A stretch of 64,000 bases of DNA, taken from the NCBI GenBank assembly GCA_963699545.1, contig CAVOUE010000005.1:1-64000 (forward strand). The letters run 5' to 3'. Positions 47,412-48,738 of the stretch are shown here, in pieces. Within the stretch, counting starts at the first letter, position 1, and each line of letters starts with the position of its first letter. Made by a program: the position numbers and the translations under genes. The notes beneath the pieces were generated by a model, which worked only from the letters and a program-made list of their open reading frames with translations, ran no database searches and was not told the DNA's origin. Source of the stretch: Nitrospirota bacterium (GTDB taxonomy: Bacteria; Nitrospirota; Thermodesulfovibrionia; Thermodesulfovibrionales; UBA9159).

Positions 47412-47534
47412 ATGAAAAAGACAGTGAGCAAGAAGGCTCTTGTCAAGGAGGCTGCCTTCTGGAGCGATTTCAGCAGGGCGGTAAAGGAAAATCCTGGCAA
47501 GGTATGCCACAAATGAAAGAGTTGAAAGAGCTAA
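47412..47534 (+). CDS. Putative RiPP precursor peptide with two selenocysteines: MKKTVSKKALVKEAAFWSDFSRAVKENPGKVCHKUKSUKS
   Basis: Strong RBS GGAGGAGGTGA; in-frame TGA at 47514 and 47523 in register with Cys (CxxUxxU); TAA at 47532; SECIS-like hairpin follows; radical SAM/SPASM gene next. Confidence 0.75.
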
Positions 47535-47552
47535 CGTTGCTGGTCAGCAACG
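47535..47552 (+). promoter_or_regulatory. Putative SECIS hairpin
   Basis: CGTTGCT-GGTC-AGCAACG; loop 25 and 16 nt after the two UGAs; resembles the E. coli fdhF SECIS apex (GUUGCAGGUCUGCAC). Confidence 0.7.
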
Positions 47553-47562
47553 AAGAGGCGAA

Positions 47563-47629
47563 GGCAGATACGGCAGGGGGACCGTTCAGAGTGAAATATA
47601 CCTTGCTGCTGTATCTGCCGCTTTTATTT
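47563..47629 (+). terminator. Long hairpin with U-rich tail between peptide and maturase genes
   Basis: GGCAGATACGGCAG...CTGCTGTATCTGCC, then GCTTTTATTT. Confidence 0.6.
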
Positions 47630-47667
47630 GGGGGGCGTGTGTCTATCCGTTCCGTGTCTAAGAGAGG

Positions 47668-48738
47668 ATGAATGAGGTTTTAAGTATGTCGATCAATCAG
47701 GCTCACGATTTTTTTGTTCAGTGGCATCTCACCGAGAGGTGCAACCTCAGCTGCACCCACTGTTATCAGACAGGCAAGGGGAGCGATGAGACGCCCCTGG
47801 AGGATATAAAGGCGACGATCGGCGAAATTGAGGAGATGCTCAAGGCATGGTCCGACGCCTATGGCATTGATTTCCGGCCGAGTTTTAATATCACGGGCGG
47901 CGAGCCGTTCCTGCACAGGGATCTCTTTGAGATACTGGAAGACCTGAGGAGGAGACACTTCGACGTCTATCTTCTTTCCAACGGCACTCTCATTAATGAG
48001 GAAAAGGCAAGACTTCTGTCATGGCTTGGCGTGAAGGGTGTTCAGGTGAGCATCGAGGGGCCGGAAGCTGTCCACGAGAGCATAAGGGGGAAGGGCAGTT
48101 TTGTCTCATCGCTGCGGGGTGTAAGGCATCTCATTGATGCCGGAGTAGCAGTAAGCCTGAATGCGACACTGTCCGGGATCAACGCCGCGTATTTCAGGGA
48201 AATGATTGATCTCTCATTGTCCCTCGGAGTTCAGAAGCTGGGTTTTTCAAGACTCGTACCTTCCGGGAGAGGTGCGGATCTTCTGAATAAAATGCTGCCG
48301 AAAGAAACAGTGAAAAGGATGTATGAGCAGATTTTTTCTCATAAGGCAAACGGGCTGGAGATCGTCACCGGAGACCCTGTGGCAGTGCAGCTGGCCTCAC
48401 CGTGTGATGGATCCGACTCAGGCTCCTTTCCCACGGGGGGATGTGCCGCCGGTGTTTCCGGTTTCACCATCCTTGCTGACGGGACCATGACCCCGTGCAG
48501 GAGGTTGCCGATATCTGTTGGAAATGTGAGGAAGGATGCCCTGCGGGAGGTCTGGGCGACCTCGGGAGTCCTGGAGGCACTCAGGGACAGGTCCGGATAC
48601 AAGGGGAAATGCGGGGCCTGCAAGAGATGGGCCAATTGCAGGGGCTGCAGGGCGATCGCGTACGCCTATTCCTGTGCGCAAGGGGAAAAGGATTTCCTTG
48701 CAGAAGATCCGCAGTGTTTCATTGACGAGGGATTGTGA
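47668..48738 (+). CDS. Radical SAM/SPASM domain protein, candidate peptide maturase
   Basis: QWHLTERCNLSCTHC, TGGEP; SPASM GGCAAG...TPC...GKCGACKRWANCRGCRA...DPQC. Confidence 0.92.
   Translation: MNEVLSMSINQAHDFFVQWHLTERCNLSCTHCYQTGKGSDETPLEDIKATIGEIEEMLKAWSDAYGIDFRPSFNITGGEPFLHRDLFEILEDLRRRHFDVYLLSNGTLINEEKARLLSWLGVKGVQVSIEGPEAVHESIRGKGSFVSSLRGVRHLIDAGVAVSLNATLSGINAAYFREMIDLSLSLGVQKLGFSRLVPSGRGADLLNKMLPKETVKRMYEQIFSHKANGLEIVTGDPVAVQLASPCDGSDSGSFPTGGCAAGVSGFTILADGTMTPCRRLPISVGNVRKDALREVWATSGVLEALRDRSGYKGKCGACKRWANCRGCRAIAYAYSCAQGEKDFLAEDPQCFIDEGL

Follow-up and report, generated by a model that had tools for sequence, protein, structure and literature searches.

A short gene with two in-frame UGA codons and a neighboring radical SAM/SPASM enzyme gene form a conserved pair that appears to represent an unnamed family of selenium-containing modified peptides

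Introduction

A stretch of 64,000 nucleotides from a Nitrospirota bacterium (assembly GCA_963699545.1, contig CAVOUE010000005.1, positions 1 to 64,000 of the forward strand; hereafter the window) contains a very short gene with two in-frame UGA codons and, downstream of it on the same strand, a gene for a radical S-adenosylmethionine (radical SAM) enzyme with a SPASM domain. The locus raises the question of whether the short gene ends at its first UGA or is read through both of them, with selenocysteine (Sec) inserted at each, and whether the resulting peptide is the substrate of the enzyme encoded next to it. A first-pass annotation, made from the letters of the window, had proposed that the gene encodes a precursor peptide with a leader and a core containing two Sec residues, that a selenocysteine insertion sequence (SECIS) follows the stop codon, and that the enzyme modifies the peptide. 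Here we report a comparative analysis of this proposal. The locus as a whole is best explained, in our judgment with high probability, as a two-gene cassette composed of a di-Sec peptide and its radical SAM maturase. The pair appears to represent an unnamed family of selenium-containing modified peptides that occurs in anaerobes labelled as several bacterial groups.

Results

The short gene is conserved beyond both UGA codons

The peptide gene occupies positions 47412..47534 of the plus strand and consists of 40 codons followed by a TAA stop codon (47532..47534, read in the window sequence). Thirty-four sense codons lead up to the residues C-H-K and are followed by a TGA (47514..47516, the putative Sec35), K-S, a second TGA (47523..47525, the putative Sec38), K-S and the TAA. 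Read as a precursor, the product would consist of a leader (residues 1-31) and the core C32-H-K-U35-K-S-U38-K-S, in which U denotes Sec. The Shine-Dalgarno sequence GGAGGAGGTGA (47395..47405, plus strand) ends 6 nt ahead of the start codon, ATG 47412, and GGAGGTG-like sequences are likewise found ahead of the start codon in orthologous loci. A mechanical list of open reading frames (ORFs; minimum 30 aa) included the 34-codon portion before the first TGA. TGA also serves as an ordinary stop codon in the source genome; the enzyme gene itself ends in one.

Loci for comparison were gathered by homology to the enzyme alone and came from three sources, giving 43 in all. The first was a set of 41 genomes related to the one that carries the window (G000, 87% complete), 15 of which contain an enzyme ortholog at 55% identity or above. 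Genomes of named species contributed 6 close loci and 6 at 42-45% identity, while metagenome contigs contributed 15 close loci and 1 distant locus. Two pairs, L022/L043 and L017/L133, are near duplicates. An intact peptide gene, with its leader, lies upstream of the enzyme gene and on the same strand in 35 of the 43 loci. Three of the remaining eight are contigs cut at or just ahead of the enzyme gene (L011, L140, L149), two hold a leader-deleted remnant (L020, L137), and three have no peptide gene within the available flank (L024, L141, L144). The genomes behind L011, L020 and L024 nevertheless contain an intact peptide gene with its hairpin elsewhere, at a contig end in G002, on contig 2 in G003 and on contig 13 in G032. 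The close group is labelled as Nitrospirae/Nitrospirota metagenome-assembled genomes (MAGs) together with one Deferribacteres MAG and one delta proteobacterium MAG; the labels of the distant group are Dehalococcoidia/Chloroflexia, Syntrophales and Thermodesulfobacteriota. Across these loci the leader carries a conserved EAxFW-type motif (...ALxKEAAFW...), in which E13, A14 and W17 are invariant, and the core follows the pattern C-x-x-U-K-x-U-K-x.

The codon at the first internal site is TGA in 35 of 35 loci; that at the second is TGA in 34 and TGC in one (L152), and neither is ever TAA or TAG. The terminal stop, which stands two or three codons past the second UGA, is TAA in 16 loci, TGA in 11 and TAG in 8. 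Since the terminal stop drifts among all three codons whereas the internal sites never do, the internal UGAs do not behave as real stops. Serine codons switch between the AGY and TCN classes behind both UGAs, with AGT (7), AGC (10) and TCC (4) after the first, and AGC (20), AGT (4), TCA (1) and TCC (1) after the second. The lysines of the tail are encoded by AAG or AAA, and S, G, T, E, K and A all occur at its variable position, with no insertion or deletion between the first UGA and the stop. For 20 distinct 40-codon genes, third-position entropy was 1.18 in the peptide frame versus 0.71 and 0.57 in the alternative frames, and the ratio of synonymous to non-synonymous differing codons was 1309/2269 versus 488/3332 and 282/3544. 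The +1 frame, which is open in the window (M-P-Q-M-K-E-L-K-E-L...), was rejected as a candidate gene, as it contains stops in orthologs, has a low synonymous share and is not conserved past the hairpin.

Interchange between TGA and Cys codons, which the first-pass annotation had proposed as a check, does exist at these sites and is rare. A 39-aa protein from a single JGI contig (P0140) is a full-length homolog with Cys at both sites and a K-S / K-G-K ending, which is the classical Sec/Cys signature, resting on one sequence known as a protein alone. The other case is the TGC codon of L152, where the enzyme gene is broken by a frameshift and a deletion of ~93 nt. A UGA that is either kept or replaced by Cys, with coding conservation downstream of it, is the hallmark of a bacterial selenoprotein gene, and both features are seen here. 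Comparison among the loci thus establishes the gene, its frame and its translation beyond both UGAs, and Sec would be the residue inserted at each of them.

Public databases contain the family in a shortened form. A search of a 5.8-billion-protein collection with the close form returned 18 clusters, all covering the first 34 of the 40 residues and all either named 'hypothetical protein' or nameless. A profile of the distant form gave 52 matches, and 21 of the 22 that were fetched end just ahead of the first UGA, the remaining one being P0140. No real match to the peptide was found in Pfam or in NCBIfam at E values up to 10, the latter giving two junk matches only.

A covarying hairpin follows the stop codon

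Directly after the TAA lies the hairpin CGTTGCT-GGTC-AGCAACG (47535..47552, plus strand), which has a 7-bp stem and a GGUC loop at 47542-47545. Since only two codons separate the second UGA from the stop codon, the whole hairpin is situated 3' of the latter. Over 32 distinct sequences, pairing holds in 97.4% of cells for the six aligned pairs (window 47536-47551), and compensatory changes occur in five of the six. None of 500 shuffles gave an equally good result, the signal collapses when the pairing partners are slid against one another, and RNAalifold predicts the same helix unaided. In three loci (L022, L043 and the one in G032) the GGUC-type loop is retained on another stem, GCCGCC...GGCGGC. 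In L042 and L135 the loop is UGGAU instead of GGUC, similar to the UGGAA loop of the mvhD hairpin described below. The hairpin is thus conserved across the family and, as judged by sequence and covariation, has what is expected of a bacterial SECIS, namely a stem-loop with a G-containing apical loop shortly 3' of a UGA.

Four SECIS hairpins of the same genome, three of the fdhA type and one of mvhD, served as comparators. Counted from the U of the UGA, their G-rich loops start at 21, 22, 26 and 26 nt, and one of the fdhA-like hairpins, GUGGCC-GGUCU-GGCCAC, resembles the peptide hairpin. For the latter, the corresponding distances are 28 nt from the first UGA and 19 nt from the second. With four comparators only, these distances are suggestive of a single hairpin placed midway between two usual spacings. 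Rfam recognized no SECIS family in the whole window at the gathering threshold, and a relaxed search (E up to 10) of positions 47380-47700 returned only a meaningless mir-761 match on the terminator hairpin and no SECIS.

The genome carries selA, selB, tRNA-Sec and other putative selenoprotein genes

The first-pass annotation had taken a Sec-type mvhD gene in the window as a sign that the organism decodes UGA as Sec. This FlpD/MvhD gene is indeed present at 10062-10430; a single TGA stands in its frame at 10239, and the hairpin GCAUUACC-UGGAA-GGUAAUGC lies downstream of it. G000 also contains fdhA genes with in-frame TGA. With regard to the decoding machinery, selA (607 bits), selB (302 bits for its first half) and tRNA-Sec (72.9 bits) were found in G000, all over their cut-offs. 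A Sec-containing selD occurs in 19 of 21 relatives, both congeners included. SelB exceeds the cut-off in 39 of the 41 relatives, so that its co-occurrence has no power to discriminate, and likewise in four of the five distant-group genomes.

The enzyme is a compact radical SAM/SPASM protein below every family cut-off

The enzyme gene spans 47668..48738 on the plus strand and ends in TGA. Its probable start is Met 47686, which yields 350 aa (356 aa from 47668) and is the start position in enzyme homologs and in the database copy P0002 (350 aa). Pfam assigns it to the radical SAM superfamily (Radical_SAM PF04055, 78.4 bits, cut-off 29.5) with a SPASM domain (PF13186, 38 bits, cut-off 21.5). The sequence, folding calculations and Pfam thereby bear out the order proposed at first pass of GGTC-loop hairpin, terminator-like hairpin and radical SAM/SPASM gene. 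In an alignment of 43 enzyme sequences, from which L050 (a stop ahead of the true start) and L152 (broken gene) were left out, the CX3CX2C motif (C25/C29/C32) and seven further cysteines (259, 277, 315, 318, 324, 327 and 350) are invariant. By its pattern this set of seven is the full SPASM motif, predicted to hold two auxiliary clusters.

The enzyme reaches no NCBIfam cut-off. Its best match is to the AhbD model TIGR04545 (176.6 bits, cut-off 500), followed by the ACGX-system model TIGR04340 (171.1 bits, cut-off 400), NirJ2 (164.6 bits, cut-off 500), NirJ (137.7 bits), NirJ1 (123.1 bits) and AhbC (120.3 bits), the cut-offs of these heme-synthesis models ranging from 500 to 650. The SbtM model TIGR04082 gives 132.8 bits against a cut-off of 350 (E 1.6e-38) and aligns over profile positions 190-515 of 516 only. 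The enzyme therefore stands outside the SbtM, ACGX and heme-synthesis families. At least 120 database clusters share 61% identity or more with it, and public names of its homologs are either generic or 'AdoMet-dependent heme synthase'.

An AlphaFold model of the enzyme (predicted local distance difference test, pLDDT, 87.3; predicted template modelling score, pTM, 0.86) has as its nearest solved folds SuiB, SkfB, anSME, PqqE, ChlB and CteB (Foldseek template modelling, TM, scores of 0.65-0.75), and profile searches rank SkfB (9.3e-31), CteB (3.1e-21) and anSME (1.2e-20) in that order. Because the CX3CX2C motif begins at residue 25, there is no room for an N-terminal recognition element (RRE) of the kind that binds leaders of peptides made on ribosomes and modified after translation (RiPPs).

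The peptide gene accompanies the enzyme gene

We examined the partnership from both directions. A 24-nt degenerate pattern of the core matched in 15 of 15 relatives with an enzyme ortholog versus 2 of 26 relatives without one, and both of the latter matches look dissimilar to the family. The pattern matches once in G000, and its reversed form, used as a control, gave no match in 41 genomes. A peptide-first search of 251 genomes from the class of G043, whose contig is labelled Dehalococcoidia, produced 6 strong matches in 5 genomes, all with two TGAs. Five of the six have an enzyme gene directly downstream, one of them frameshifted. When ORFs flanking the 35 loci were clustered, the enzyme was the sole conserved neighbor (35 of 35) and the next real cluster comprised at most 6 loci; no conserved gene for a protease, transporter or RRE protein was found within ~1.5-3 kb.

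Complex prediction with custom alignments, using the enzyme and peptide residues 1-34, gave a score of 0.85, the best control scoring 0.01. The 0.85 mark is reached by 58 of 80 solved complexes and by 2 of 110 mismatched pairs. Prediction runs agreed in at least 63% of contacts, and the pLDDT of the partners was 73 or higher. In the model, the leader helix 8-17 (E13, A14, W17) packs on enzyme W61, residues 64-67 and 289-298, and R306; the conserved enzyme residues contacted are W61, R293, E294, W296 and R306. Peptide residues 27-31 are led towards the enzyme loop 251-258 beside Cys259. The model supports binding of the leader by the enzyme. Adjacency, co-occurrence and predicted docking together thus present the picture expected of a RiPP, in which a leader/core precursor is encoded with an enzyme that would recognize the leader, and the comparison of loci establishes the partnership of the two genes.

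Several genomes carry rearranged copies. In G003 the enzyme gene has moved (L020, contig C93) and is preceded by a peptide remnant without leader that has lost one K-S unit, while the intact peptide gene, hairpin and terminator remain at the old place on contig C2 (L217) with no enzyme gene after them. A second copy of selD lies divergently upstream of the moved enzyme gene, and L137 represents the same type of locus. Adjacency of selD to the enzyme was considered as a general feature and rejected, being confined to this type (L020, L137). G214, a genome from the class of G043, has two peptide copies (L237 and L240). One copy is complete, but the surrounding 1.5 kb contain no enzyme gene; the second has no ATG start and stands ahead of an enzyme gene with a frameshift.

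Predicted transcription signals and neighboring genes

A predicted sigma-70-like promoter, TTGACA-16 nt-TAAGAT with a TG extension (47316..47343, plus strand), matches 10 of 12 consensus positions and lies ~70 nt ahead of the peptide start. A TTGAC-N15-19-TAnnnT element, a consensus match likewise predicted to be a promoter, precedes the peptide at 24 of the 35 loci. Between the two genes, fold calculation revealed a long hairpin (47563-47619) that is followed by a T-rich run, the whole element (47563..47629, plus strand) being a putative terminator or attenuator. The region 47505-47640 folds with -53.8 kcal/mol (z -4.99), and none of 200 shuffles was equally stable. A terminator scan with a loop limit of 3-8 nt did not list the hairpin 47563-47619, which we attribute to an apical region exceeding that limit. 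A hairpin with a T-run is present in the spacer of 18 of 35 loci, all of them in the close group.

L022 and L043, and likewise the tightly spaced loci L045-L050 and L152, have no terminator. There the enzyme ORF either can begin in the +1 frame, at an ATG sharing nucleotides with the peptide's first UGA, or begins 5-29 nt past the peptide stop, and the SECIS-like hairpin falls in the ribosome-binding region of the enzyme gene.

Just 5' of the peptide gene, the window contains a 144-aa ORF of unknown family (46818-47252) that recurs in 4 of 35 loci. Downstream of the enzyme are a gene for a DUF255 thioredoxin-like protein (48795-50765) and an unannotated 192-aa ORF (50926-51504) that is superoxide dismutase-like by eye only. 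At the old peptide place of G003 (L217), a homolog of the 144-aa ORF stands between the peptide gene and a homolog of the 192-aa ORF. These neighbors hint weakly at a redox or oxidative-stress context, and this for the close relatives only. Further upstream, a trypsin-like (HtrA-type) protease with a PDZ part (43711-44916) is split over two or three frames (43711-44454, 44498-44689 and 44623-44916), which may be another assembly indel.

Relatives of the enzyme and comparison with known systems

Enzyme homologs at 33-41% identity follow proteins whose C-terminal tails are rich in Gly, Cys and Ser and contain C-x-x-C-type repeats. Loci of this kind (L025, L026, L051, L053, L059, L150, L151) show repeats such as C-S-G-C, C-G-G-C and C-S-S-C, and several are of Ruminococcus type. 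The upstream protein of L025, the one tested, is a 321-aa membrane protein that matches TIGR04222 (52.6 bits, cut-off 43), and the enzymes of these loci reach no NCBIfam cut-off. They are the nearest relatives outside the present family, with the same compact architecture and a C-x-x-C spacing comparable to C-x-x-U-x-x-U; in contrast to the present system, the candidate substrate is the tail of a membrane protein (in L025) and contains no UGA codons. As judged from these sequences, the wider enzyme clade seems devoted to Cys-rich C-terminal tails, with the present family as its Sec-bearing, free-peptide branch. The Cys-tail proteins and their enzymes look like an uncharacterized sulfur counterpart of the present system, neither partner having a functional name.

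Among described systems, SbtA/SbtM (TIGR04081/TIGR04082), as far as the published outline of that system goes, offers the nearest layout: a ribosomal peptide with UGA-encoded Sec, a downstream hairpin and an adjoining radical SAM/SPASM maturase with three predicted Fe-S clusters. However, SbtM has 516 aa compared with ~350 aa here, and the first ~190 positions of its profile have no counterpart in the present enzyme. The outlined SbtA core is G-G-U-G / S-G-U-G, whereas the core here is C-x-x-U-K-x-U-K-x at the extreme C-terminus, and the taxa of the present family differ from those of SbtA/SbtM (Nitrospirae/Nitrospirota, Dehalococcoidia/Chloroflexia, Syntrophales and Thermodesulfobacteriota MAGs). 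SbtM, by analogy and as outlined, is a plausible model for chemistry at the beta-carbon of Cys or Sec.

Fold (TM 0.65-0.75) and profile similarity also connect the enzyme to anSME, CteB, SkfB, SuiB and PqqE, from which it differs by an identity of only 16-23% and by the presence of Sec in its predicted substrate. SuiB, CteB and SkfB exceed the present enzyme by 50-100 N-terminal residues. An RRE is not known from anSME either, and the first auxiliary cluster of CteB takes a Cys of the substrate as a ligand. The enzymes of the AhbD, NirJ and ACGX families (TIGR04545, TIGR04055, TIGR04340) give the top NCBIfam scores, are of similar length and share the start Q-W-H-x-T-E-x-C-N-L; in contrast, those scores are far under the cut-offs and the conserved partner here is a peptide instead of a tetrapyrrole context. 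The upstream peptide contains no ACGX repeat.

A survey of selenoprotein families (PMC13188914, 2026) lists in its Table 1 the SbtA family as 'Selenobacteriocin', the only Sec peptide of this kind among the 119 families of that table. It also lists small selenoproteins with UxxU or Sec-x-x-stop ('UXX-star') endings, namely TIGR02605 (FmdB-like), NF041115, NF041114 and NF041211. As listed there, these resemble the present peptide in having two Sec residues 9 nt apart or a Sec two residues before the stop; their hairpin would lie at or beyond the stop and, in the UxxU case, would serve two UGAs. They are otherwise unrelated proteins, listed without a dedicated maturase, and none matched the peptide. 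Our literature search, which covered few subscription journals and no supplements, found no description of a matching family, only work on SbtM and general selenoproteome papers.

Discussion

The proposal made at first pass is supported by every comparison that was run. The gene with its strong Shine-Dalgarno sequence and its C-H-K-TGA-K-S-TGA-K-S-TAA ending reads as claimed and recurs in 35 loci; the peptide is unlike SbtA precursors, with no G-G-U-G / S-G-U-G motif and no match to a family model; and the suggestion of an undescribed family agrees with an enzyme that is under all NCBIfam cut-offs, a peptide that has no model and the outcome of the literature search. The first-pass annotation had named findings that would speak against it, namely homologs lacking the upstream peptide or replacing its internal TGAs by TAA or TAG, a tail and hairpin that are not conserved, a genome devoid of Sec machinery, and an enzyme inside the heme-synthesis clades. 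None of these was encountered: the internal TGAs are never TAA or TAG while the true stop rotates, and the hairpin covaries.

Several observations nevertheless weigh against a di-Sec peptide with a dedicated maturase. The Sec machinery that the first-pass annotation had asked for is present in G000 as selA, selB and tRNA-Sec, but the search for selD gave nothing above the cut-off (66.9 bits at best, against 125) in a genome that is 87% complete. Its selB is split between two frames (model positions 1-314 and 312-577) by an apparent 1-nt indel; the junction lies on contig C3 at ~319040-319200 near a GGG run and reflects either an assembly error or a truly broken selB in a genome that retains several selenoprotein genes with UGA codons. 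Both the absence of selD and the split of selB may be assembly faults of an incomplete genome. Two UGAs at a distance of 9 nt would depend on a single hairpin, whose spacings to them are each 2 nt outside the range of 21-26 nt given by four comparators, and L012, alone among the loci, has no hairpin. Interchange of Sec and Cys is thin, comprising one all-Cys protein known without its context and L152 with its broken enzyme gene. The complex prediction used custom alignments and residues 1-34, so that the Sec tail was excluded, and the best HMM match of the enzyme is to AhbD. The related genomes are kin, which means that counts of loci are not independent. Finally, a search of sequencing runs for this stretch listed no RNA run, only 8 DNA runs with a word share of 0.05 each.

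If the cassette works as we propose, the first gene would be transcribed from its own promoter and would yield a 40-residue peptide consisting of an amphipathic leader and a Cys-x-x-Sec-Lys-x-Sec-Lys-x core. SelB and tRNA-Sec would read both UGAs as Sec, directed by the single hairpin just past the stop. Fewer transcripts or ribosomes would arrive at the enzyme gene, in the close group because of a leaky terminator and in the distant group because of tight coupling. The compact radical SAM enzyme, having no RRE, would bind the leader helix through the SPASM helix 292-298 and the helix 44-65, and this binding would bring the Cys/Sec tail into the active site, next to the first auxiliary cluster, for modification by 5'-deoxyadenosyl radical chemistry. 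That the C-terminal Cys/Sec tail is the substrate, and what type of chemistry acts on it, we infer from these comparisons. Since a Lys is conserved after each Sec, a donor-x3-Lys register (C32...K36, U35...K39) results, and thioether or selenoether rings of this register would fit by analogy with the Cys-x3-Asp ranthipeptides. Oxidation at the beta-carbon of Cys or Sec, analogous to that of anSME and of SbtM as outlined in the literature on it, is equally open. Because the pair has no conserved neighbor, be it a protease, an exporter or any other gene, its product probably has an intracellular function, as a selenopeptide or cofactor that is redox-active or binds metal, and a secreted antibiotic is less likely.

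A first alternative is that the peptide is a true small selenoprotein rather than a substrate, serving as a redox partner or as a carrier of metal or selenium, with the enzyme acting elsewhere, for instance on a tetrapyrrole. AhbD and NirJ2 are top HMM matches, some homologs bear the name 'AdoMet-dependent heme synthase', no protease or exporter is conserved, and the peptide and enzyme genes are unlinked in G003 and G032, all of which this alternative would accommodate. We nonetheless think it unlikely. The enzyme scores only about one third of the AhbD and NirJ cut-offs, and the same genomes contain separate homologs at ~32% identity, for which AhbD identity is a possibility. The leader/core architecture, the predicted docking of the leader on a conserved enzyme surface with the C-terminus near loop 251-258, the Cys-rich tails that precede relatives of the enzyme, and the peptide maturases that are its nearest solved structures all argue instead for a substrate.

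The second alternative dispenses with Sec: the peptide would end at the first UGA as a 34-residue product with a C-H-K terminus, and the 9-nt repeat and hairpin downstream would be an RNA attenuator or coupling element. We consider this very unlikely. It draws on the database copies, which stop at the first UGA in all 18 close-form matches and in 21 of the 22 fetched distant-form sequences, although truncation there is the usual output of standard gene callers at any UGA. The hairpin does lie past the stop and adjoin the terminator, is just ahead of the enzyme start in the distant group, and matched no Rfam SECIS family; however, it resembles the genome's own fdhA SECIS. An attenuator would also leave unexplained the AGY/TCN switches of Ser codons behind both UGAs, a stop that rotates among TAA, TAG and TGA while the internal codons never become TAA or TAG, and the all-Cys, full-length P0140. 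That the locus simply belongs to the known thio(seleno)oxazole system SbtA/SbtM, as the shared layout of a small Sec peptide beside a radical SAM/SPASM gene and the low E value for TIGR04082 could suggest, is scarcely credible given an SbtM score far below the cut-off, the missing N-terminal part of that profile and a peptide with neither the SbtA motif nor an NCBIfam match.

Returning to the di-Sec peptide and its maturase, we also entertain a more specific version, in which the product is a selenium-obligate ribosomal cofactor or metallophore, the RRE-less enzyme recognizes the leader on its SPASM domain and makes a selenoether-bridged or otherwise oxidized Se/S chelating tail for use within anaerobic cells, for instance in redox reactions or the handling of metals, and one hairpin in the 3' untranslated region, midway between the best spacings for the two UGAs, serves to decode both. 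This version is doubtful; if it were true, both the RiPP class and the way in which bacteria decode two Sec codons would be new. On the sequence comparisons, we rate the present family as the second family of Sec-containing peptides associated with radical SAM enzymes, after SbtA ('Selenobacteriocin'), to which it would be unrelated. It has been hidden in annotation: apart from one all-Cys variant, the peptide copies inspected stop short of the first UGA under the name 'hypothetical', and the enzyme goes by a generic name or by that of a heme synthase. Small selenoprotein genes of this type would be systematically truncated by gene calling. The pair would offer a tractable system for the handling of selenium by SPASM enzymes, for leader recognition without an RRE, and for the recoding of two UGAs 9 nt apart by one hairpin.

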